DNA of 64,000 nucleotides, from positions 1 to 64,000 of IMG/VR virus record IMGVR_UViG_3300025708_000007; one strand, 5' to 3'. The position numbers and the translations under genes are program-made. Under the pieces are notes generated by a model that ran no database searches, had not been told where the DNA came from, and saw only the letters and a program-made list of their open reading frames with translations. The stretch comes from a virus. Lineage: Duplodnaviria; Caudoviricetes. Positions 21,256 through 60,871 of this stretch are shown here, piece by piece. The stretch's first letter is position 1; every line of letters begins with the position of its first letter.

Positions 21256-23337
21256 TTAATTTTTCTTTTTCTTATCCAATCCATTAAATAACCAAGAATG
21301 TGCGATATATGGATTTAATGGTGATGCGCTGCTTGGTGAAATCATTGGTCTGTTTTTTATGTCTTTCTTTTTTTCGATTTCTTTAATGTCATTTACAGTA
21401 ACAATTGCATTAAGCATTTTTTCGGTCATGCTTTTACTTTGCTTGTATCTTGCCATATCAAAATTCAAAACATATAAACCAATTGACAATCCCATTATTG
21501 AATCATCGTGGAATGAACGTTTATGGTCAGCAACACGGTTTCCGGGAACAGTGACAAAAGTTTTCAATTCATTTAGTAATCTCACAGACCTAATTATCAC
21601 ATCTTCAAGATGAATAGCACGTTGCATCTCAAGTAATACTGAAGCACGGTTATTGCCAATAAAAAATCCGGGAATTAAATCAACAGTAACGACACTACCA
21701 TCACTCAAAGTTTTTTGTCCTTTTTTAATATATCCTTGTAGTCTATCTCTCGATGGTTTATGTGTTACTTCAGCATAATGAATGCTTTCTTCAGGATAAC
21801 CAAATTCAATTAGTTTTTCTACTGTTTGTACACCATAACCACCTGTAATATCAATTACACAATATGCATTATTATATCTTTTACCATACTGATATGCAAT
21901 TTCAGCAAGCATTTGTGGTGTTATTTTACCATAATATTCGGCAACTTGTTCGCACAAATGTCTTTTTATTTTAACCTTCTTTACCTTATCGCCTTTAGTG
22001 ATTATTTTTTCTTCAATAATTTCTTTTATTTTTAACATATTCATGGTTGAATTATCTTCACCATGTCCCGGTGATGCATCAAGTGCCATGATATAATTTT
22101 CACCCGGTAATGGGTCTTCCCAAACCCACAAATTTAAATCAGTGTATTCCTGACGAATTGGCGTTAATACTTCATTTTCTTGAATACGTTTAAGAAATTC
22201 TTCTGCAATGAAGTTATCTCCTGAACCCAAAAATGAGCATAAAAGTTCCTGTGCGATTTTACGCATGTCACCATTTGCATCACGTACTTCAGCTTCGAAC
22301 CAAGGAGAACTTGCTTCCCAACCTTCGGTCATTAAATCAATGCGTTTTTTATAATCCCAATTTTCGTCAACTATTTTTATTTCATTTGATTTACCCTTAT
22401 TTTTCAGCCAAACCAAATCTTTATTATATCTGGGGTCATTATACCACCAAAGTTCAACAGCTTTGAAGTTATTTTCTTTGCTTCTTGCACCCATGAATGT
22501 TTTATAGAATACTGCATCAAGACCAGAAGGAGTACTTACGAAAATAGCTGCACCACCAGTCTGAAGTGTAGGTTTTGCAGATGTCCAGAACTTATCACCT
22601 TTTTCTGTCCATGCAACCTCATCCCAGAATAATAATGTTGGCGTATAACCACGAAGACCTTTTGATGAGAAAGCACCCAATTTTGAATTGTTATCATAAA
22701 TTTTCATTTTCTGGGTGTCTTTCAAATTCTTCTCACTATTTCTTCCGGTTTTCGGTCTAAGCCAACTTGGGCAACTTTCAATAAAGTCAACAACGTCAGC
22801 CATCATTTCGTCACGTGCTGTTTCAAGTTTATCTGCAACAATAGCAACCTGTCTGTTTCTATTAAACATTATGTACCATGCAATATATGCACAAGTGGTT
22901 GTTGAAATACCAGCCTGACGATATTTGTTTGCAACAACAAATCGATTGTCTTTATATGTTTCAACCAATTCTTTTTGAAATTCAAATAATTTAAACGGCA
23001 CAATCATACCACCAGCACCCTGAGTCTGGTCAAAAATGGTTAAATAGGTTTCGATGAAATAAACAGGATTTGTTGCACAACGAACAATTTCTTGTTTTTG
23101 CTCTAAAAGAGTTAATTCACTTGCTTTTTTTGTTAATCCTTCTTCAGTAACAACAATCGGTTCAACATTCCCAATTTTTTTTCTAAGTTCGGCAGCTTTT
23201 TTTCTCGCCTCTTCTTTTTCCTTTTCTTTTTGAAGGTCAAGTGGAATTATTGGTACATGTTCTGGAAATAGGGAATCTTCTTCTTGTTCTTTTTTCTTTT
23301 TTTCGGGGTCAATATTTAAATTTGCATTAATACTCAT
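21256..23337 (-). CDS. terL: terminase large subunit (gp17-like)
   Basis: KYRQAGISTT, LFWDEVAW, VSTPSG, nuclease DASPGHGEDNS and HDDSIMG. Confidence 0.95.
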   Translation of the reverse strand: MSINANLNIDPEKKKKEQEEDSLFPEHVPIIPLDLQKEKEKEEARKKAAELRKKIGNVEPIVVTEEGLTKKASELTLLEQKQEIVRCATNPVYFIETYLTIFDQTQGAGGMIVPFKLFEFQKELVETYKDNRFVVANKYRQAGISTTTCAYIAWYIMFNRNRQVAIVADKLETARDEMMADVVDFIESCPSWLRPKTGRNSEKNLKDTQKMKIYDNNSKLGAFSSKGLRGYTPTLLFWDEVAWTEKGDKFWTSAKPTLQTGGAAIFVSTPSGLDAVFYKTFMGARSKENNFKAVELWWYNDPRYNKDLVWLKNKGKSNEIKIVDENWDYKKRIDLMTEGWEASSPWFEAEVRDANGDMRKIAQELLCSFLGSGDNFIAEEFLKRIQENEVLTPIRQEYTDLNLWVWEDPLPGENYIMALDASPGHGEDNSTMNMLKIKEIIEEKIITKGDKVKKVKIKRHLCEQVAEYYGKITPQMLAEIAYQYGKRYNNAYCVIDITGGYGVQTVEKLIEFGYPEESIHYAEVTHKPSRDRLQGYIKKGQKTLSDGSVVTVDLIPGFFIGNNRASVLLEMQRAIHLEDVIIRSVRLLNELKTFVTVPGNRVADHKRSFHDDSIMGLSIGLYVLNFDMARYKQSKSMTEKMLNAIVTVNDIKEIEKKKDIKNRPMISPSSASPLNPYIAHSWLFNGLDKKKKN

Positions 23338-28975: not shown

Positions 28976-30100
28976 TTAATGATACAATAAAAAGGTTCTT
29001 TTTACATCTTTTCTTTGTGCTGCAATATCACCCTGTCCTTTTGGCAATACAATAACATCAAAAACACCTTGAGAACCTTCAGGTATTTTTATTAAGTCAT
29101 CATACATTATTAAAGTATTGATGTCTGCATTATACTTATCAGCAATTCTTTGCTTTAATGTAGCAATGCTGTTTTCGTCTTTTGGTATTAATTTGCCTTT
29201 ATCGTCCACAGCAAAATGCGGACCTTTTCTAATAAACAAATCATTAAAAATATCTGAGGACACTATTTCAGATGTTTTTGCTTGCGTTAAATCAACCTTC
29301 CCTTTTTCTTTTTCGGTAGCATCGACAGAAAAATTCAAGGTCACATCAGGGTCATTCAAGTTATAAACATCACCCATTTTCGTATGCGCATATGAGCCAA
29401 AATTATATCCTTTGCTTTTTAATTCACGTGTTATATCTGCAGCAATTTGAAAATATTTTTTTGAGAAAAAATCACCAGCATCATTCCATCTGAAAAGTAA
29501 TTTTTTACCTTTATTTTTCAATGCCACTATTTCAATTTCACGCCTCAATATTTCTTTAAATTCATCTGGTTTATTTAACAACAGGTTTAAAATTCTTGTT
29601 TGCTTTACAAATATTGATGGTATTAAAACATATCTTCCACGTCTTGCATAGCACACTCTCTGGCAAGAACCTGCACCGGGACAAGTGTTTATAATATAAA
29701 ATTCTTTATTATCCATATCATATACTAACCCACGCAATGCAGGTATGCCGATATTAAATGTTATTGAATTATCAGTACCAGATTTTCCCATTTTTTCGTT
29801 TTGACTGATAATATTTGGGGGGTATGCTGTTATGTTATCAATAAAAGCCTGTACATCAATTTCTCCTTTTTCATCAAACGGAATTGCTTTATTGTGTACA
29901 AGTAACGATGATTTAGTTCTTTTATCTGAAGGCAATTCCTGATTAGACAATACTTTATTGAGATATTCTTTCAATGCCTCAACATTCATACATTCTTTTG
30001 AAACATCACTGAATTCACCTTCCCAATCAATTTCGTTCAATGACATCCCGCCAACACTTTCCATTAATTGAAAAAGTCGTTTCTTATTATCCTTATCCAT
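28976..30100 (-). CDS. GP88-like Cys-cluster protein with RLFEVM-like leader
   Basis: TCPGAGSCQRVCYA and LFRWNDAGDF motifs resemble the phage GP88 family (recollection). Confidence 0.6.
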   Translation of the reverse strand: MDKDNKKRLFQLMESVGGMSLNEIDWEGEFSDVSKECMNVEALKEYLNKVLSNQELPSDKRTKSSLLVHNKAIPFDEKGEIDVQAFIDNITAYPPNIISQNEKMGKSGTDNSITFNIGIPALRGLVYDMDNKEFYIINTCPGAGSCQRVCYARRGRYVLIPSIFVKQTRILNLLLNKPDEFKEILRREIEIVALKNKGKKLLFRWNDAGDFFSKKYFQIAADITRELKSKGYNFGSYAHTKMGDVYNLNDPDVTLNFSVDATEKEKGKVDLTQAKTSEIVSSDIFNDLFIRKGPHFAVDDKGKLIPKDENSIATLKQRIADKYNADINTLIMYDDLIKIPEGSQGVFDVIVLPKGQGDIAAQRKDVKRTFLLYH

Positions 30101-33300: not shown

Positions 33301-33501
33301 AAAGCAAAATTTATTATAAATACTTATTACTTTATATAAATGCAGAAAAATTTGTGCTATCCAAGTATTTATGAAATGAAAGGGTCATTGCTTAATAGTG
33401 ATATTAAGTTAGGTCAGATAAAGTTAGATGTGACTTTTAAAATTTTATCGCCTGATAGGGGTTATGTAAAATTTTAGACTTGACTTTTCAAAAGAAAGAT
33501 T

Positions 33502-33540
33502 AAACGCACCTTGTTATCATATATAAGGTGCGTTTTTTTT
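33502..33540 (+). terminator. intrinsic terminator insulating tRNA operon 1
   Basis: AAACGCACCTT...AAGGTGCGTTT followed by a T run. Confidence 0.75.
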
Positions 33541-33578
33541 CACAAAAAAATATTTTTTTGAAAAATTTTTCGAAAAAG

Positions 33579-33609
33579 TTTGTATTTATGATTTTAAGTG
33601 CTATATTTG
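33579..33609 (+). promoter_or_regulatory. Bacteroidota sigma-A-type promoter of tRNA operon 1
   Basis: TTTG-N19-TATATTTG. Confidence 0.8.
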
Positions 33610-33642
33610 CACTATCATTTTTTAAGATTTATTGCTATAGTT

Positions 33643-33717
33643 ATGGAGAATTTTGTACATATTCAACCCCAGCCACAACAGCATCCACAAGATGGTGAAT
33701 GGGGAACATGTGCTTAA
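33643..33717 (+). CDS. attenuator leader peptide 1 (His/Gln/Pro-rich)
   Basis: MENFVHIQPQPQQHPQDGEWGTCA; upstream of Pro/His/Gln tRNAs. Confidence 0.8.
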   Translation: MENFVHIQPQPQQHPQDGEWGTCA

Positions 33718-33752
33718 TTTTTCGAAGATGAAGTTTTGAGTTAAACATTGTG

Positions 33753-33783
33753 AACCCCATTCTGAAAAGAGTGGGGTTTTTTT
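33753..33783 (+). terminator. attenuator terminator 1
   Basis: AACCCCATTC-TGAAAA-GAGTGGGGTT+T5; 5' arm is also complementary to GAATGGGG (33697-33704). Confidence 0.85.
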
Positions 33784-33796
33784 GTTCTTTGAAATT

Positions 33797-33871
33797 CTGG
33801 GTGTTCCGCAGATGGCTATACGGGCGTGCCTTGGAAGCACGTGTTCGCTGGTTCGAATCCAGCTACCCAGA
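33797..33871 (+). tRNA. tRNA-Pro(TGG)
   Basis: cloverleaf; CGTGC-CTTGGAA-GCACG; GTTCGAATC T-loop. Confidence 0.9.
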
Positions 33872-33877
33872 CAACAC

Positions 33878-33953
33878 GGTGAGCGTAGTTCAGTTGGCAG
33901 AACACCAGATTGTGGTTCTGGTTGTCGCTGGTTCGAATCCAGTCGTTCACCCA
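33878..33953 (+). tRNA. tRNA-His(GTG)
   Basis: cloverleaf; CCAGA-TTGTGGT-TCTGG; encoded G-1, C73. Confidence 0.92.
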
Positions 33954-34123
33954 AAAATATCGATGATTTTATCTATATTTTCAAAATATCGATGAATTTA
34001 TCGATAAAATGAAAATATCGCTTAATTACACGATAATTGTATTTATCACGTAAACAAGTGATAAATAAGTTCTTTGAATTAATGAAAAAATGGGATTTGA
34101 AAAATTTTCAAGTATTTATTTAC

Positions 34124-34531
34124 ATGAAATATCCTAAGATAATAAAACGTTGTCCTATTTGTGATAAAGAATTTGAAACAAAATCGGGACACCCCAAAGA
34201 AAAAACAGTTTGTTCACATTCTTGTGCAAACACATATTTTCGGTCTGGAACTTCAAATCCTAATTACAAAAATGATGATGAATTAACTGGTGTTGCGAAA
34301 TACATTAGAATTTGTTTTCGATATCATCCTAAAAAATGCGTCTGCTGCAATGAAACAAATATTGTGGAAGTGCATCATTATGATAATAATAAAGAAAATA
34401 ATTCACCCGAAAACTTAATACCTTTATGTCCAACACATCATCAATATTGGCACAGTAGATTTAGACATTTGATTAAAACAAAGATTGATAAATATATTGT
34501 GGAATTTAAAAAAAATTTTATCGGGGTGTAG
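34124..34531 (+). CDS. HNH homing endonuclease
   Basis: CPIC, CSHSC, CVCC...EVHHYD...NLIPLCPTHH; track start 34037, ATG 34124 preferred. Confidence 0.8.
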   Translation: MKYPKIIKRCPICDKEFETKSGHPKEKTVCSHSCANTYFRSGTSNPNYKNDDELTGVAKYIRICFRYHPKKCVCCNETNIVEVHHYDNNKENNSPENLIPLCPTHHQYWHSRFRHLIKTKIDKYIVEFKKNFIGV

Positions 34532-34594
34532 CGCAGTTGGTAGCGTACCTGCTTTGGGAGCAGGGGGTCGTCAGTTCGAGCCTGACTACCCCGA
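34522..34594 (+). tRNA. tRNA-Pro(TGG)
   Basis: cloverleaf; CCTGC-TTTGGGA-GCAGG. Confidence 0.93.
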
Positions 34595-34596
34595 CT

Positions 34597-34671
34597 GTGT
34601 TAGATGAAGATATTGGTTCTCTTCGCCTGATTGTGACTCAGGCTTCTGCGGGTTCGATTCCCGTCTAACAC
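34597..34671 (+). tRNA. tRNA-His(GTG)
   Basis: CCTGA-TTGTGAC-TCAGG; G-1, C73. Confidence 0.85.
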
Positions 34672-34679
34672 CTAATTAT

Positions 34680-34752
34680 TGTCTCGTGGTGTAACGGCTA
34701 ACATGGCTGACTCTGACTCAGGAGATTGCAGGTTCGAATCCTGCCGAGACAA
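34680..34752 (+). tRNA. tRNA-Gln(CTG)
   Basis: T1:A72 acceptor; loop CTCTGAC. Confidence 0.88.
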
Positions 34753-34756
34753 CAGT

Positions 34757-34849
34757 GGTGACAGATATAAAAAACTGCACGAGAAACAGACACGAGTGGG
34801 TTAAGAGTTGTTTTAATACCCGCAATGGTTGCCAGTACCTAATGTCACC
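34757..34849 (+). ncRNA. 93-nt structured element, copy 1
   Basis: 7-bp terminal stem GGTGACA/TGTCACC; core near-identical to 39727..39819. Confidence 0.7.
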
Positions 34850-34854
34850 CAAAT

Positions 34855-34937
34855 TGACCTCTGGCAGAATGGTTATTGCATCGGTCTTTGAAGCCGACAC
34901 CCTTTGTGGTTTACAGGTTCGAGTCCTGTGGGGTCAA
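34855..34937 (+). tRNA. tRNA-Gln(TTG) with long variable arm
   Basis: TCGGT-CTTTGAA-GCCGA; ~14-nt variable region. Confidence 0.75.
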
Positions 34938-35010
34938 CAAAATATATTTTTTTGCATATATTTTAATATGTTTGCATAAAATTATATTTATTTACATATA
35001 TTTGCATAAT

Positions 35011-35165
35011 TATTGTTACGTGACGAAGCGATTCGTAATTAAGCCTTTGACTGTAAACCTTCACAGGGGTTCGGTTGCTTTCAGGATATAGTTCACTGGT
35101 TATGTGGAAAGTAACACTGTGTTAAGTGATAACTTAATGAAAGTAAAGACAGTCCCGTAACAATA
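35011..35165 (+). ncRNA. candidate 155-nt multibranch ncRNA
   Basis: TATTGTTACG/CGTAACAATA closing stem with internal hairpins. Confidence 0.5.
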
Positions 35166-35168
35166 CAT

Positions 35169-35242
35169 TGACCCGTAGTGTAATTGGTTAACACGTCTCA
35201 CTTTGACTGAGAAGACTACAGGTTCGAGTCCTGTCGGGTCAA
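35169..35242 (+). tRNA. tRNA-Gln(TTG)
   Basis: TCTCA-CTTTGAC-TGAGA; T1:A72. Confidence 0.93.
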
Positions 35243-35712
35243 CTTTTTTTACGACAATGCGTTGGTAATGTTGCGTTACAGTTAGGACATAAAATTCTTA
35301 GATTTTCAATTCTATGGTCTGAATTATCACCATTAATATGGTCGAGAATTAAACTTATATGTTCACCGTTCCAATTTTCATTCTGACCACATTTTTCACA
35401 AATACGTTTTTTTAATCCTTCTTCATATAATCTATTCTTAATATTACCCAAATTTGTATAGGTTGAGCCAGACACTAAAATTTCGATTGTTGAAATTTTG
35501 CGAGAATTATTTAATTTGGTGTTTGTTCTCATATACCGTTCTACTTTTGATTCGAAATGTGAAATATCAATATCATATAATTTAATATATTTCTTTAGTG
35601 TAGGTCTCGAATTTCCTTTAATTCCCAATCCCAATTTTTGAAGTATTTCGGTATAATTTTTCGAGTTTTTTACAATAGGTTCAAAATTTTCTCGCAAATA
35701 TTTTGTTTTCAT
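35239..35712 (-). CDS. HNH homing endonuclease
   Basis: CEKC...LILDHINGDNSDHRIENLRILCPNC. Confidence 0.88.
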   Translation of the reverse strand: MKTKYLRENFEPIVKNSKNYTEILQKLGLGIKGNSRPTLKKYIKLYDIDISHFESKVERYMRTNTKLNNSRKISTIEILVSGSTYTNLGNIKNRLYEEGLKKRICEKCGQNENWNGEHISLILDHINGDNSDHRIENLRILCPNCNATLPTHCRKKS

Positions 35713-37325: not shown

Positions 37326-37407
37326 ATCTTGTGTGTTTAAATAAATAAAACAATTTTCGTGCCGGAATTATTAATATCTTTATGGTATTTATTATAAATA
37401 TTTGATT

Positions 37408-38121
37408 ATGAAAAATCGGGGTGGTAGACAAAGACTTTTTGAAGTTCTGGCAAAAGTAGACCCAACTTTCAAACCCAAAGCAGGTACTGGTGCAAAGCTA
37501 TATGTAAAGCCATCGGATGTGCCGTTACAAATCATTGATTGGGCAAAATCAATTGTTGGCGGTGGCTTTCAAAACAATATAACAATACAAAAATCAACAG
37601 GTGCTGTAAAACTTGGTATGCCTTGGCATGATGCTGATAGAGAAACACACCAATATTTTAAATTAATGGATAATGGTGCTGCTGAAATGGGAAATCCAGT
37701 ATCAAGGTCAGGCTGGTCAGAAGTAAATATGGGTGATAGTTATGGTGAAGTTCCAATACCGTCAGGTTATGTTTTAGCAACAGTTGGTACATATCCAAAA
37801 AGGCTTAGAATAGTAACAAACCCGGATGCGATGGATGTGCTTTCAAATAATGATGAAGCATTAAACAAACTTTCTGATGAAGCATTGGTTGCGTTACACC
37901 AAGCAAAATCATATAAATCGTTTGCCAGACAAAAATTTAATAATAGTGTTTATGAGGAATTATTATCATCTGGATTAATGAACAAACAAAGAGCAATAAC
38001 AATTGATGGAAGAAATTTCATTAGTTCTCCAGAAGCCATTAAAAAATTAAAAAACATTAAAGAAAAAGATGAAAAGGAAAATGGCAGATGGAGTGCGAAA
38101 TATTATATGCCAAGTATTTAA
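37408..38121 (+). CDS. hypothetical protein with RLFEVM-like leader
   Basis: MKNRGGRQRLFEVLAKVDPTFKPK; GGTATTTATT at 37384-37393. Confidence 0.75.
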   Translation: MKNRGGRQRLFEVLAKVDPTFKPKAGTGAKLYVKPSDVPLQIIDWAKSIVGGGFQNNITIQKSTGAVKLGMPWHDADRETHQYFKLMDNGAAEMGNPVSRSGWSEVNMGDSYGEVPIPSGYVLATVGTYPKRLRIVTNPDAMDVLSNNDEALNKLSDEALVALHQAKSYKSFARQKFNNSVYEELLSSGLMNKQRAITIDGRNFISSPEAIKKLKNIKEKDEKENGRWSAKYYMPSI

Positions 38122-38136
38122 TATAAAATAAATGTT

Positions 38137-39060
38137 ATGAAAAAAGATAGCAAACAAAGACTTTTCGAAGTTATGAGCAGACTTGATAAAACATTCAAGC
38201 CAAAATTGAATGAAATTTTTGGGGAAGAACCAGAAGAATTCGTCCCACACGGCACATATACTGTTTCGAATGCAGGTGGTTATGAAATTATGTTAAACGA
38301 TGCGGGTGATGCTGCCAAAGTACGTGATGCGTTTGGCTCAGACAACCCAAAAACTTCAGATTGGTTAGAAATAGAATACACGCCTGATAATGAAACTGGC
38401 GAAAGTGAACCAGTTATTGACCCAAATGGTTATAACATTCCTTTAAATCAGGTTATGAGATTACAAGAAGAAGCAAATGTTAATGAAGAACAAACCAGAC
38501 CATTATATGATATTGCTCAAGAAATCTATCAGGACTGGAGACCAGTTCATCCATATGCAAAACCATATCTTGAAGCAATGTCAACATTGAATTCAATAGA
38601 TGATAACTATATGATGGATTCAGGTAGAAGTATTGTTTCATATTTTCTTTCAAATGCAAGTCAATGGAAAGGTGAAACAGCAAAACGCATTAAAATTGAA
38701 TTGAAAAAAATGTTAGGAATGCGAGAAGGTAGTAGATTAAATGAAACTGGTGAATGGGCAGGTGATGAAGATGATATAGCATGGATAGATGCTCTCAAAT
38801 CTGAAGTACAAAAAATCGAATCAGAAACTGATGGAAAATTAAAATTGGTCGAAGTCAGGGGTTTCGATAAATATCAAGGACCTTACGCCATTGTTGATAT
38901 TGAAGGAAGAAAATACAAAATCTGGACAGTTGGTGGTGAATATGATAGCGATTTACTTTGGATTGAAAATTATCCCATTGACAATACTTCAAGTGAGGAT
39001 ATGAATGCTGGTTTTATGGGTACAACAAAAACAATTATTAATATGTTGAAACAGAACTGA
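38137..39060 (+). CDS. multidomain protein with RLFEVM leader
   Basis: MKKDSKQRLFEVMSRLDKTFKPKLNE; internal LQE/VNE/LNE junctions. Confidence 0.8.
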   Translation: MKKDSKQRLFEVMSRLDKTFKPKLNEIFGEEPEEFVPHGTYTVSNAGGYEIMLNDAGDAAKVRDAFGSDNPKTSDWLEIEYTPDNETGESEPVIDPNGYNIPLNQVMRLQEEANVNEEQTRPLYDIAQEIYQDWRPVHPYAKPYLEAMSTLNSIDDNYMMDSGRSIVSYFLSNASQWKGETAKRIKIELKKMLGMREGSRLNETGEWAGDEDDIAWIDALKSEVQKIESETDGKLKLVEVRGFDKYQGPYAIVDIEGRKYKIWTVGGEYDSDLLWIENYPIDNTSSEDMNAGFMGTTKTIINMLKQN

Positions 39061-39104: not shown

Positions 39105-39135
39105 TTTGTTTATTTTGAAACATTTTTTATCTTTG
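39105..39135 (+). promoter_or_regulatory. Bacteroidota sigma-A-type promoter of tRNA operon 2
   Basis: TTTG-N19-TATCTTTG. Confidence 0.8.
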
Positions 39136-39200
39136 TATCGTATAATTGCAAAACAAATAGTATTTAAATAAAAAGTATTAACAATTAAAATTCAAAACGA

Positions 39201-39296
39201 ATGAAAAGAATGCTCGACATATCAGTAATGGCAGTAGCCTTGAACGCAGTCCTATTATGGGATGCAGTAGAGGATGCGCTATGCAAAGTCGGGTAA
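39201..39296 (+). CDS. attenuator leader peptide 2 (Val/Ala/Leu/Asp/Glu/Trp)
   Basis: MKRMLDISVMAVALNAVLLWDAVEDALCKVG; upstream of Asp/Glu/Val/Leu/Ala/Trp tRNAs. Confidence 0.8.
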   Translation: MKRMLDISVMAVALNAVLLWDAVEDALCKVG

Positions 39297-39333
39297 TTTG
39301 TATTCATATACAACCTCCTTTCTAAATGAAAAG

Positions 39334-39365
39334 ACCCGACTTCCCTACAAGCCGGGTTTTTTTTT
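39334..39365 (+). terminator. attenuator terminator 2
   Basis: ACCCGACTT-CCCTAC-AAGCCGGGT+T run; 5' arm perfectly complementary to AAGTCGGGT (39286-39294). Confidence 0.85.
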
Positions 39366-39375
39366 GAAAGGAGAA

Positions 39376-39672: not shown

Positions 39673-39726
39673 GCAAATTTTACTGTTAAAGCAGTAAAAA
39701 GTGCCATATATGATACTAAAGATAGT

Positions 39727-39819
39727 GATGACCGATGTAAAAAACTGCACGAGAAACAGACACGAGTGGGTTAAGAGTTGTTTTAATACCCGCAACGGTT
39801 GCCAGTACCCAAGGTCATC
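39727..39819 (+). ncRNA. 93-nt structured element, copy 2
   Basis: GATGACC/GGTCATC terminal stem with two compensatory changes relative to copy 1. Confidence 0.7.
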
Positions 39820-39824
39820 CAGAT

Positions 39825-40795: not shown

Positions 40796-41293
40796 ATGGA
40801 AAGCTGTATTTTTTGTGGACATAGCAATATCGTTAGGGCAGGTAAAAATAAAAGGGGTAGTCAAAGATATATTTGCAGAAAATGTGGTAAATATTTTAAC
40901 GAAAATACTGACCCAAACATTGGAGTTATATTAAATGGTAAAAAATATTGTTCTAAGTGTAAAACATTTAAGTTAGTATCGGAATTTCAATCAACAAATG
41001 GTAGATTACGTTATTGTTGTAAAAAATGTGCATCAAAATCAAGTAAAGCAAGATTCAGAAATCATAATATAACTGAATTTGAATTCGTTAATTTAATCGA
41101 TAGTCAAAAAAATATGTGTCCAATATGTGGGGATAAATTTAAATCATATAAACATGCAATTATTGACCATAATCATAAAAATGGTAAAAATAGAGAATTA
41201 TTATGTTCTAAATGTAATACGTTGTTAGGTATGTGTAATGATAATATTGATATTCTCAATAGTGCAATCAATTATTTATTAAAACACAATTAA
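40796..41293 (+). CDS. endonuclease VII-like homing endonuclease with N-terminal zinc ribbons
   Basis: CPIC...IIDHNHKNGKNRELLCSKCNTLLG. Confidence 0.82.
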   Translation: MESCIFCGHSNIVRAGKNKRGSQRYICRKCGKYFNENTDPNIGVILNGKKYCSKCKTFKLVSEFQSTNGRLRYCCKKCASKSSKARFRNHNITEFEFVNLIDSQKNMCPICGDKFKSYKHAIIDHNHKNGKNRELLCSKCNTLLGMCNDNIDILNSAINYLLKHN

Positions 41294-42366: not shown

Positions 42367-43035
42367 ATGATACCACTATATACACAAACGGAATTTGATT
42401 TAGCAAAAGATAATGATAAATTACCTTGTAAATGTGTTGAATGTGGTAAAATTTTTTATAAACTGAAAAGGGTGATAAAAAGAACATTCATTGGCTACGA
42501 TAGAAACATTGGTGATTATTGTTCAAGAAGATGTGCTCGATTATCAAAAAAATCGAGTGCAGATGTTGTTTGCAGTAATTGTGGAAAATCTTTCAATAAA
42601 GTAAAAAGTCAAATTAAAAGAAGCAAAAATCATTTTTGTTCTAAATCATGTTCTGCAATTTATAATAACGTCCATAAAAAACATGGAACACGAAAATCCA
42701 AACTTGAAAAATGGTTGGAATATAATCTCACCAAAATATACCCAGACTTAAATTTTCATTTTAATTGCAAAGACACCATTAATTCAGAACTTGATATTTA
42801 TATTCCATCATTAAAATTAGCTTTTGAATTAAATGGAATATACCATTACGAACCAATATATGGTGAGGATAAACTTCAACAAATTCAAAGCAATGATAAT
42901 CGTAAATTTCAAGCCTGTTTGGAAAAAGGTATCGAACTATGTATTATTGATACTTCACAACAAAAATATTTTAAAGAACAAACATCACAAAAATATTTAA
43001 AAATCGTACAAGAAATAATAAACACACATCGGTAG
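42367..43035 (+). CDS. zinc-finger + PD-(D/E)xK/Vsr-like putative homing endonuclease
   Basis: CVEC, CSRRC, CSNC, CSKSC; ELDIYIPSLKLAFELNG. Confidence 0.75.
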   Translation: MIPLYTQTEFDLAKDNDKLPCKCVECGKIFYKLKRVIKRTFIGYDRNIGDYCSRRCARLSKKSSADVVCSNCGKSFNKVKSQIKRSKNHFCSKSCSAIYNNVHKKHGTRKSKLEKWLEYNLTKIYPDLNFHFNCKDTINSELDIYIPSLKLAFELNGIYHYEPIYGEDKLQQIQSNDNRKFQACLEKGIELCIIDTSQQKYFKEQTSQKYLKIVQEIINTHR

Positions 43036-45121: not shown

Positions 45122-45494
45122 GGGGCAGTTTGGTTTTGACAGCATGCTTGAATGGTATGTAAGCAAGTCGTAGTTTGAGCAACACTACGTAAAAACAGGT
45201 TCAAAACAATAAATGCAGAGGATATAATGTCCATTCCTACTTCTCTAACGAGAGGTCGCTTATTTGTAGAGAGTGCTGAACTCGCAATGGTAGCGTAAGG
45301 AAGCAGCAAACGCAGCAAAAACCTTCCAAATAAACCCATCTCGATGGAACTTGTTATTTTAACAGAGAGATAAGGAAGTAAAATAAAACAGTGGATAAAA
45401 AATAAATGTTTTGCTGATTTAGAAAAATCAGATAAACTTGTAGAAAACGTATTGGGCACATGACTGCACACGGGTTCGAATCCCGTCTGCTCCA
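45122..45494 (+). ncRNA. ssrA: tmRNA
   Basis: 5' GGGGCAGTTTGGTTTTGACAGC, 3' GGGTTCGAATCCCGTCTGCTCCA, G3:U70; resume GCA at 45215 after ATAAAT; tag AEDIMSIPTSLTRGRLFVESAELAMVA* to 45298. Confidence 0.92.
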
Positions 45495-45519
45495 CTAAAA
45501 CATTTAAAACATTGAAATT

Positions 45520-49127: not shown

Positions 49128-49526
49128 TTATTTATAATCAGGACTTATTTTGTATGATTTTGCTGTAACATACCCGCTTGATGCACTCTTGCCTGTTGGA
49201 ACAATTGCACCCATATCAATGAGTGATTTTGCAACTGGTTCATTTTCGCTCCAATCTTTCAAGAAAAATTCGTCTTCAGCAAGTTGCGCTGATTCCGGCA
49301 TATTAACCGAAATCATTGCAAATGGTTCGCCATTGGTAGTGATTAGTTCAACGGCAAGTGCATTGTTGTCCCTATACCTGTCAAATTCGAAATATACTTC
49401 ATCATCTTCACCCCAAAGATTAAGTGTGAATGTTTTCTGCGGACTTTCATTCAATTTTCTTTTCTTAAATGTTTTATCAAGTCTGCCCATGACTTCATAA
49501 AGTCTTTTTCTATCTGTATTTTTCAT
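49128..49526 (-). CDS. DUF4313-like protein with RLYEVM leader
   Basis: MKNTDRKRLYEVMGRLDKTFKKRKLNE; then YRDNNALAVEL...EPFAMISVN...DEFFLKDWSENE. Confidence 0.7.
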   Translation of the reverse strand: MKNTDRKRLYEVMGRLDKTFKKRKLNESPQKTFTLNLWGEDDEVYFEFDRYRDNNALAVELITTNGEPFAMISVNMPESAQLAEDEFFLKDWSENEPVAKSLIDMGAIVPTGKSASSGYVTAKSYKISPDYK

Positions 49527-50367: not shown

Positions 50368-50826
50368 TTAACCAAATATTACATCACATTTCATTGTACT
50401 GAAATCTATTTCAACTTCTGTTGGATATACTCCATCACCAAAAACTCTGTCTGTAATTGAAGTATTAAATTCCCACTGATACTTCGCAACATCAAGCTGT
50501 GCTTCTTGGTCGGGTACATTTTCATCTGATGATACGATTTCATAATATATTGTGCCTACAATGCCATCAATCATAACCATCATGCTTTTAATTCCATAAT
50601 CCCTGATTTCTGGTATAATGTGCCATTTCACATCAACCTTCTGACGATAAGCATCAACATATTCTGCTTGTGGATAAAATTTTTCTTTTAAGCCGTCAAT
50701 ATGAACCTCAACATTTTTTGAATAAAATGACCAATCATCATCAGTCATTTCATTCATTTTGGGTTTATACGATTTATCAATAGCTTGCATAACTTCAACA
50801 AGCCTTTGTTTTTTATTGCCTTTCAT
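50368..50826 (-). CDS. hypothetical protein with RLVEVM leader
   Basis: MKGNKKQRLVEVMQAIDKSYKPKMNE; ATG 50826 lies downstream of the GTATTTAT motif (rc 50847-50856). Confidence 0.75.
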   Translation of the reverse strand: MKGNKKQRLVEVMQAIDKSYKPKMNEMTDDDWSFYSKNVEVHIDGLKEKFYPQAEYVDAYRQKVDVKWHIIPEIRDYGIKSMMVMIDGIVGTIYYEIVSSDENVPDQEAQLDVAKYQWEFNTSITDRVFGDGVYPTEVEIDFSTMKCDVIFG

Positions 50827-50890
50827 GTCGTGGAATAACAATTTTTTATAAATACTTGACAACGATTAAAATTCTATATAAATTCGCAGC

Positions 50891-54895: not shown

Positions 54896-54926
54896 TTTGT
54901 TTTTATCGTATTTATCCTTACATTTG
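54896..54926 (+). promoter_or_regulatory. Bacteroidota sigma-A-type promoter of tRNA operon 3
   Basis: TTTG-N19-TACATTTG. Confidence 0.8.
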
Positions 54927-54954
54927 TAACCTCAAACTTTGTAAAAACATTTTT

Positions 54955-55044
54955 ATGATGACTATTTTTGGAACATATTATTACGGTAAAAAATCTTATA
55001 AGAAACAACTTATAGGAATCGGGAATACTATGTCCAAAAATTAA
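54955..55044 (+). CDS. attenuator leader peptide 3 (Tyr/Lys-rich)
   Basis: MMTIFGTYYYGKKSYKKQLIGIGNTMSKN; upstream of Tyr/Lys tRNAs. Confidence 0.85.
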   Translation: MMTIFGTYYYGKKSYKKQLIGIGNTMSKN

Positions 55045-55072
55045 ATGGTTTTGATTTTAATCTGACATGAAC

Positions 55073-55101
55073 AACCCGATTCCGAAAGAGTCGGGTTTTT
55101 T
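55073..55101 (+). terminator. attenuator terminator 3
   Basis: AACCCGATT-CCGAAAG-AGTCGGGTT+T run; CCCGATTCC also pairs with GGAATCGGG (55015-55023). Confidence 0.85.
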
Positions 55102-55113
55102 ATTTTGTATATT

Positions 55114-60546: not shown

Positions 60547-60577
60547 TTTGGTATTTATGAAACATTTTATACCTTTG
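60547..60577 (+). promoter_or_regulatory. Bacteroidota sigma-A-type promoter of tRNA operon 4
   Basis: TTTG-N19-TACCTTTG. Confidence 0.8.
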
Positions 60578-60646
60578 CATCGTATTTAGGTAAAAATGAG
60601 TTTATGAAAAAACCTTTTTATTATTAAAAACAAAAAAAATAAAACA

Positions 60647-60781
60647 ATGAAACGAATAGCGTACATATTAGTATCGAGTCTAACGACAACCAGTCGTATT
60701 GGAGAAGGTACATTTTGCTCAGATTTCGGCAGAAATAATATTGCGGATACGGGTTCAGGTTTTATTGACTTAAAAAGATAA
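60647..60781 (+). CDS. attenuator leader peptide 4 (Thr/Ser/Ile/Gly/Phe/Cys/Asn/Arg)
   Basis: MKRIAYILVSSLTTTSRIGEGTFCSDFGRNNIADTGSGFIDLKR. Confidence 0.75.
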   Translation: MKRIAYILVSSLTTTSRIGEGTFCSDFGRNNIADTGSGFIDLKR

Positions 60782-60814
60782 GTAGGTAGTAAAATAAAAC
60801 TGAAATAAAATCAG

Positions 60815-60846
60815 AACCCGGAATCCAAAAAAGTTCCGGGTTTTTT
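60815..60846 (+). terminator. attenuator terminator 4
   Basis: AACCCGGAAT-CCAAAAAA-GTTCCGGGTT+T run; GAACCCG pairs with CGGGTTC (60750-60756). Confidence 0.85.
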
Positions 60847-60871
60847 GTTTTTAATGCGTTCTTTACATATT

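Follow-up and report, generated by a model that had tools for sequence, protein, structure and literature searches.

A likely leader-peptide attenuator ahead of a Pro/His/Gln tRNA array in a relative of uncultured jumbo phages

When and why large phages express the dozens of tRNAs that they encode is an open question. The locus described here raises it in a specific form: why should a short open reading frame (ORF) dominated by histidine, glutamine and proline codons, followed by an intrinsic terminator, stand between a promoter and an array of tRNA genes for just these three amino acids? The locus lies within the opening 64 kb of a virus contig in IMG/VR (the whole stretch of DNA analysed, 64,000 nt, referred to here as the window), whose full record runs to 90,967 bases and is estimated to be 28% complete. 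One strand of this window carries 42 tRNA genes together with a tmRNA gene (ARAGORN). Similarity in ribonucleotide reductase identified the relatives of the phage as uncultured jumbo phages of 320-675 kb, amongst them the 635-kb GenBank records LR745206.1 and LR756504.1; a cultured relative was not found, the nearest GenBank phage records all being uncultured. Bacteroidetes hosts have been predicted for phage genomes of the 635-kb class in a paper on huge phages (PMC7162821), in which attenuators, leaders and terminators are not mentioned. All the sequence-level features of a ribosome-mediated attenuator are present at the locus, namely a leader ORF, cognate codons, a terminator and a mutually exclusive antiterminator, and we consider it likely, in the absence of expression data, that it acts as a transcription attenuator of the trp/his type, mediated by the ribosome through a leader peptide, and controls a phage tRNA operon.

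The cassette and the tRNA array that it precedes are made up of the following features.

33502-33543, plus strand: upstream intrinsic terminator (13-pair stem, then a T run), insulating the cassette from transcription that originates to its left
33579-33609, plus strand: Bacteroidetes-type promoter (TTTG at 33579-33582, 19 nt, then TATATTTG at 33602-33609)
33643-33717, plus strand: leader ORF of 24 codons plus TAA (ATG at 33643, TAA at 33715-33717), predicted peptide MENFVHIQPQPQQHPQDGEWGTCA
33658-33690, plus strand: regulatory codon run, codons 6-16 (H I Q P Q P Q Q H P Q; 10 of 11 are His, Gln or Pro)
33667-33671, plus strand: region 1, CCCCA, within the regulatory codons; pairs with region 2 (TGGGG, 33700-33704) if free of the ribosome
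33697-33704, plus strand: region 2, GAATGGGG, codons Glu-Trp-Gly; 5' strand of the antiterminator
33713-33740, plus strand: spacer hairpin, with the stop codon in its 5' arm; lies within the loop of the antiterminator, drawing regions 2 and 3 close to each other
33752-33783, plus strand: intrinsic terminator, a 12-pair stem (33752-33779), then seven T (33777-33783)
33797-35243, plus strand: putatively controlled tRNA array, only Pro x2, His x2 and Gln x3 (ARAGORN and the Rfam tRNA model, as for each tRNA below)
33797-33872, plus strand: tRNA-Pro(TGG)
33879-33952, plus strand: tRNA-His(GTG)
34037-34531, plus strand: HNH endonuclease ORF inside the array (Pfam HNH_2, E = 2.3e-5)
34522-34595, plus strand: second tRNA-Pro(TGG)
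34597-34672, plus strand: second tRNA-His(GTG)
34680-34753, plus strand: tRNA-Gln(CTG)
34855-34938, plus strand: tRNA-Gln(TTG)
35169-35243, plus strand: second tRNA-Gln(TTG)

Since a separate terminator at 33502-33535 closes the upstream unit, the cassette constitutes a self-contained unit of promoter, short ORF, terminator and tRNA genes. The Bacteroidetes promoter consensus is TTTG, 19 nt, TAnnTTTG. A pattern search found 13 matches in the window (4.4 +/- 2.1 expected), and the pattern was present, with the same 31-nt spacing, at the head of all four tRNA cassettes in the window and was kept in the orthologues of this one. Transcription is likely to start near 33615-33620, as inferred from sequence alone. 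There is no Shine-Dalgarno sequence before the leader ATG, an absence that is usual for Bacteroidetes; given this absence, initiation of the leader remains unproven and, without ribosome or peptide data, is an inference. The codon run uses CAT twice for His, CAA three times and CAG twice for Gln, and CCC once and CCA twice for Pro. Region 2 is a perfect complement of CCCCATTC (33755-33762), which lies in the terminator 5' arm. This arm (33752-33763) constitutes region 3 and is followed by a GAAA loop (33764-33767) and by the 3' arm, or region 4 (33768-33779), the hairpin having an energy of -18.3 kcal/mol; beyond it, the first tRNA gene starts at 33797. The anatomy and the alternative pairings are shown by these data, and the function of the terminator in vivo is inferred.

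The locus had been picked out in a first-pass annotation, which claimed that 10 of 11 consecutive leader codons encode His, Gln or Pro, that the leader uses both CAA and CAG, matching tRNA-Gln(TTG) and tRNA-Gln(CTG), that 33697-33704 is complementary to 33755-33762, and that the array contains only Pro x2, His x2 and Gln x3. Each of these claims held, that on Gln codons as regards the presence of both codons and of both tRNAs (one CTG, two TTG). Absent from that annotation were the HNH ORF, a 101-nt repeat and a possible internal promoter, all inside the array.

These inserts are observations in their own right. Besides the HNH ORF listed above, an ORF beside the array (35239-35712, minus strand) has a Pfam HNH match, and two ORFs in or beside tRNA arrays (40796-41293 and 42367-43035, both plus strand) have Cys/His-rich motifs and are HNH-type by motif only; the HNH-type ORFs are probably homing endonucleases. 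A promoter-like TTTG-N22-TATATTTG near 34967-35003 could conceivably allow the last tRNA-Gln to escape control. It precedes a stretch of ~150 nt (35017-35166) immediately 5' of that gene, which is closed by a perfect 10-bp stem, TATTGTTACG ... CGTAACAATA, has no Rfam match and might be a small RNA. So might the 101-nt element, co-transcribed with the tRNAs and structured, which occurs in two copies (34754-34854 and 39724-39824, 92% identity), each filling an inter-tRNA gap and ending one base before the next tRNA, Gln(TTG) and Glu(TTC) respectively. The closing stem differs between the copies at two compensating positions (GTGGTGACAG/ATGTCACC versus GTGATGACCG/AGGTCATC); at E <= 1 nothing in Rfam matches the element, which folds with a z-score of just -1.2.

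How might translation of the leader decide between the alternative pairings? We modelled the transcript as it would be before the terminator 3' arm has been made, masking a ribosome footprint that extends from -15 to +12 around the A site. In the absence of a ribosome, regions 1 and 2 were paired and region 3 was free; minimum-energy folds without a ribosome also contained a second small helix (33682-33685 with 33694-33697). With the A site at codons 4-14, a range that takes in His6, Gln8, Pro9, Gln10, Pro11, Gln12, Gln13 and His14, all eight of the antiterminator (2:3) pairs formed, enclosing the spacer hairpin, and from codon 15 through the stop codon none did. The last two regulatory codons, Pro and Gln at positions 15-16, thus lie outside the modelled antitermination window. 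Seven of the eight orthologues modelled in this way gave the same pattern, and the eighth (L102) fell below the antiterminator threshold. The model therefore predicts, in silico only, that ribosome position sets the fold, a stall permitting the antiterminator and run-on blocking it. A purely thermodynamic switch was ruled out: once the whole terminator was present, the minimum-energy fold retained it at every ribosome position. Any choice made by the ribosome must thus, we infer, be kinetic and co-transcriptional; kinetic control is an assumption of the model that thermodynamics cannot prove.

We looked for orthologues of the unit by searching 37 related contigs with its first two tRNAs and inspecting the DNA upstream. 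An H/Q/P-rich ORF ahead of Pro/His/Gln tRNAs was kept in 8 related contigs, with cores such as HIQPQPQHPQDAEW, IVPQPQQHPQDGEW, HIQPQHQPPQVERG, HIQPQHQPQKVEW, IQHQPVQHPQD, IQQPNSNQHP and VPQPKHQLQ, together with TQPQPQHH from a separate cassette search. In an alignment of six orthologous sequences, on which all the alignment statistics for the leader rest, the ATG was invariant and gaps within the ORF were all of 3 or 6 nt, while downstream of the stop codon they were of 1, 2, 4, 5, 6, 7 or 8 nt. Pairwise differences at codon positions 1, 2 and 3 numbered 48, 64 and 135, an excess at third positions. From the invariant ATG, the frame-preserving gaps and this excess, and without ribosome or peptide data, we infer that the leader ORF is translated. 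The encoded peptides diverge freely except in the H/Q/P run and at the Glu-Trp codons, whose letters spell out region 2.

The structures are conserved as well. Across the six orthologues the terminator has 100% of cells paired, with 4 compensatory pairs, and the antiterminator 95.8%, with one compensatory change (U-A to C-G, in L100). The covariation of the antiterminator is thin among such close orthologues, since 142 of 500 shuffles do as well. In L100 regions 2, 3 and 4 shift together, from GAATGGGG/CCCCATTC/GAGTGGGG to GAACGGGG/CCCCGTTC/GAGCGGGG, and another orthologue (L103) possesses a terminator unrelated in sequence, CCCAAGC...GCTTGGG, with a matching GCTTGGG in its own leader, and it too models as a switch. 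An RNAalifold consensus of the six contained three hairpins: the 1:2 hairpin (alignment columns 31-35 with 67-71), the spacer hairpin (columns 86-96 with 109-119, one of its pairs changing from C-G to U-A) and the terminator. The conservation of the element is thus shown.

Within the phage itself, the leader stands out against several chance expectations. H, Q and P together account for 8.7% of the residues encoded by the long ORFs of the record, and an 11-codon window with at least 10 H/Q/P codons occurs once in all six frames of its 90,967 bases and was absent from 30 block-shuffled genomes. Pairing of the leader segment with the terminator arm yields a duplex of -14.6 kcal/mol, compared with -7.6 +/- 2.1 when the leader is dinucleotide-shuffled (p = 0.01), and the 173-nt leader RNA has a folding z-score of -4.55, with 0 of 200 shuffles folding equally well. 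Of the ~19 strong terminators in the record, only those directly 5' of tRNAs are combined with a nearby promoter and a short ORF.

Cassettes of the same arrangement were sought by rule: a terminator at most 150 nt 5' of a tRNA, and an ATG ORF of 18-60 codons ending no more than 110 nt before that terminator. Cassettes were found throughout the phage and the two 635-kb phages (LR745206.1 and LR756504.1), and the resulting family set consists of 16 cassettes from the three genomes. The second cassette of the window, which the rule missed because its terminator has an A.C mismatch, was added by hand. Choosing the ORF with the nearest stop gave wrong-frame ORFs in L062, L074, L092, L097, L099 and L101; these were left in the permutation tests, which can only have been weakened by them, and for orthologues of the Pro/His/Gln unit the correct frame was read directly. 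The three sibling cassettes in the window share the promoter spacing, and each combines its leader ORF with a terminator and an antiterminator to match.

39105-39366: first sibling cassette; ORF 39201-39296, V/A/L/D/E/W-rich, before Asp/Glu/Val/Leu/Ala/Trp tRNAs; terminator 39334-39357 with one A.C mismatch
54896-55104: second sibling cassette; ORF 54955-55044, core YYYGKKSYKK, before Tyr/Lys tRNAs
60547-60850: third sibling cassette; ORF 60647-60781, T/S/R/I/G/F/C/N-rich, before Thr/Cys/Asn/Phe/Ser/Arg/Gly/Ile tRNAs

The leaders differ from one cassette to the next, and the composition of each mirrors the array behind it. Besides the Tyr/Lys leader just listed, examples include PQPQDQDP ahead of Pro/Asp/Gln tRNAs, KQDKQYQPQYD ahead of Asp/Tyr/Gln/Lys tRNAs, IAIVEIAVIGGAEEGV ahead of Glu/Ala/Ile/Val/Gly tRNAs, IAMIIRMRIIR ahead of Arg/Ile/Met tRNAs and HKNFSKSHKWF ahead of His/Phe/Trp/Lys tRNAs. 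Across the 16 cassettes, the mean fraction of leader residues cognate to the downstream tRNAs was 0.44, compared with 0.19 +/- 0.03 when leaders and arrays were paired at random, a match that none of 200,000 permutations reached (z = 8.5); the best 10-residue window contained on average 7.75 cognate residues, against 3.29 in permuted pairings. The result was replicated on 25 further cassettes from relatives in IMG/VR, many of them homologous to one another, with 0 of 200,000 once more. The link between leader composition and tRNA identity is therefore shown. In addition, a 3' segment of the cassette's own leader was complementary to its terminator at p <= 0.05 in 14 of the 16 (dinucleotide shuffles; Fisher combined 8e-15), and modelled stall positions that give antitermination were enriched for cognate codons (odds ratio 2.3, p = 2e-5).

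Less support was found for the further idea that codons are chosen to fit the anticodons of the array. Both Gln codons can be read by the tRNAs at this locus; across cassettes, the codon-to-anticodon match for the six-fold amino acids Leu, Arg and Ser was 30 of 46 (25.2 expected, z = 1.7), which is not significant. We therefore make no claim of sensing at the level of isoacceptors; the match holds at the level of amino acids. It is possible that a 1.5-kb gap rule, by cutting arrays short, accounts for some of the codon-anticodon misses. The attenuator interpretation of the first-pass annotation is supported by conservation, by footprint folding, by the composition of 16 cassettes and by their matched antiterminators, with no expression data to set beside these; and the test set in advance, whether relatives conserve the ORF, came out in its favour (8 relatives keep an H/Q/P-rich ORF before Pro/His/Gln tRNAs).

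A few further features of these genomes were noted in passing. One array on the minus strand of L003 (LR756504.1) contains a tandem pair of attenuators, at ~21890-22000 and ~21600-21690; tRNA-Asp is preceded by a K/Q/D/Y leader, and directly after it comes a K/Q/Y leader with its own terminator, ahead of Tyr/Tyr/Gln/Lys tRNAs, raising the possibility of nested control inside a single array. The phage-encoded tmRNA of the window (45122-45495) scores 105.7 bits with the Rfam model and is located between blocks of tRNA genes, sharing their strand; its tag peptide is predicted by ARAGORN to be AEDIMSIPTSLTRGRLFVESAELAMVA. Past the window, at ~73291 of the same record (G000), there is a tRNA with the anticodon CTA, an amber suppressor labelled Pyl by ARAGORN; since the leader ORFs examined all end in TAA or TGA, the attenuator reading is independent of it. 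Finally, several otherwise unrelated proteins (28976-30100, minus strand; 37402-38121 and 38137-39060, plus strand; 49128-49526 and 50368-50862, minus strand) share the N-terminal motif K(Q/K)RL(F/Y/V)E(V/L)M...(T/S)(F/Y)KPK.NE, and a 52-nt DNA repeat underlies two of them.

In the mechanism that we propose, the TTTG/TATATTTG promoter would fire and a ribosome would translate the 24-codon leader, transcription and translation being assumed to be coupled in the host. With His-, Gln- and Pro-tRNAs plentiful, the ribosome would pass codons 6-16 and cover region 2, so that the 3:4 terminator would form and transcription would halt at the T run near 33780. If any one of these aminoacyl-tRNAs were scarce, the ribosome would stall in the H/Q/P run, masking region 1 and leaving region 2 available for pairing with region 3 at a time when region 4 does not yet exist; no terminator would then form, and the polymerase would enter the Pro/His/Gln tRNA genes. 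Newly made tRNAs, once charged, would lift the stall, closing a negative feedback loop. Without a ribosome, the 1:2 pairing and the terminator would make off the default state. With an H/Q/P leader wired to a switchable stop, the tRNAs would probably be made only when those codons are read slowly. The kinetic coupling of ribosome and polymerase is inferred, and so is the response of termination to the supply of cognate aminoacyl-tRNA, for which there are no transcript-end, ribosome-occupancy or limitation data. The physiological trigger is likewise a matter of inference; candidates are tRNA shortages during infection that arise through codon-usage mismatch, host shut-off or tRNA-cutting defences. 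Because a stall reports charged tRNA, it cannot by itself separate a shortage of tRNA from one of amino acid, and since more tRNA would be useless in the latter case, the adaptive signal remains uncertain.

Could these observations be explained without a translated leader acting as the sensor? One possibility is that the terminator is regulated by a phage or host protein, or by direct, T-box-like binding of tRNA, the ORF being incidental or secondary. Alternative hairpins alone do not tell what selects between the folds, the codon run could in principle pair with anticodons, and the leader shows weak, sub-threshold likeness to protein-dependent attenuators (PyrR site, E = 0.29; L10 leader, E = 0.19). 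Against this, no T-box was matched in Rfam scans of 33000-64000 at the gathering score or of 33500-35300 at E <= 1, and in neither did the leader have a family above threshold. Moreover, the conserved start, frame and stop, the gaps in multiples of three and the third-position excess are hard to explain for an untranslated RNA, and the cognate codons occupy precisely the positions at which a stall would leave region 2 free. We therefore regard this explanation as unlikely. The same is true of the proposal that the product of the ORF is a small functional peptide, or that the ORF lies upstream without any regulatory role, with the hairpin serving as a leaky terminator or insulator, or as an element for the processing or stability of tRNA precursors. 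Small ORFs and hairpins are frequent in phage tRNA regions, and the ORF is indeed conserved in relatives. However, its peptides vary without constraint outside the H/Q/P run and the region-2 Glu-Trp codons, and non-homologous leaders elsewhere change their composition to suit their own tRNAs. A strong constitutive terminator placed 60 nt 5' of genes and 3' of their promoter would also be hard to account for without antitermination, and a plain terminator has no need of matched antiterminator segments.

There remains chance, that is, a random short ORF beside an ordinary end-of-gene terminator. AT-rich phage DNA is rich in short ORFs and in promoter-like matches. This explanation is nonetheless all but excluded, given that the H/Q/P window is unique in the record and was never found in shuffles, that the cassette has a separate upstream terminator and a dedicated promoter, that it is conserved in 8 relatives, and that the permutation tests gave no match in 200,000. 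A ribosome-mediated attenuator therefore remains our preferred reading.

A bolder reading can be put forward only tentatively, the balance of our judgement tipping slightly against it. This is that giant phages of Bacteroidetes-type hosts run demand-driven, self-limiting circuits for their tRNA arrays, in which the 'roster' leader of each array would sample the decoding of exactly those amino acids that its tRNAs serve, so that a set of tRNAs would be switched on only when the matching host pool is limiting, as under attack by anticodon nucleases or during shut-off. If this were true, the attenuators would serve both as an inducible counter-defence and as a sensor of codon supply, and these would be the first tRNA genes known to be under leader-peptide attenuation. 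If the cassettes work as we read them, large phages would express each tRNA array as it is needed, with feedback built in, which would bear on the question with which we began; the leaders would form a readable record of the tRNA shortages that a phage expects, which could be linked to host defences that target tRNA; and the cassettes might prove useful in synthetic biology as compact, modular sensors of decoding speed at chosen codons.

Amongst known systems, the closest in logic are the ilvGMEDA (Ile/Leu/Val codons) and thr (Thr/Ile codons) leaders, in which a short multivalent ORF likewise senses several amino acids, a stall at any sensed codon releases an antiterminator in competition with an intrinsic terminator, and there are four regions, with region 1 within the regulatory codons. 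Unlike these, the phage element would regulate tRNA genes rather than biosynthetic enzymes, in a Bacteroidetes-type host, has no sequence or Rfam relationship to them, and has its set of sensed amino acids re-drawn for each phage array. Like hisL, with its seven consecutive His codons, and trpL, it is predicted to form 2:3 upon a stall, 3:4 upon run-on, and 1:2 plus 3:4 when untranslated, and its codon run lies ~100 nt from the T run, a distance of similar order in trpL. It differs from both in interleaving three amino acids, in possessing an extra conserved hairpin between regions 2 and 3, and in having tRNA as its output. The enterobacterial His, Trp, Leu and Thr leader RNA families of Rfam gave no match in the scans described above, and the likeness to them is one of mechanism, not descent.

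Leader-peptide attenuation of a translation component that serves the sensed amino acid has precedents in pheST, with its pheM leader, and in the bacilli, where a His-rich leader lies upstream of hisS/hisZ (PMC2965389). There it is synthetase genes that are controlled; here it would be the tRNA genes themselves, so that the product would directly replenish the molecule sensed. T-box riboswitches also respond to the state of a particular tRNA by switching a terminator or antiterminator 5' of translation-related genes, but in them the uncharged tRNA is bound directly and without translation, by way of a specifier codon and the T-box sequence, whereas the phage element shows coding-frame constraint and has no T-box match. 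Leader-peptide attenuation is itself a textbook mechanism. In the full-text literature that we searched, all the genes for which we found it described are those for amino-acid biosynthesis and transport or for aminoacyl-tRNA synthetases, and no published case for tRNA genes was found. What would be new in the cassettes described here is the use of this classical logic on tRNA arrays, in a multivalent form that is re-drawn for every array.
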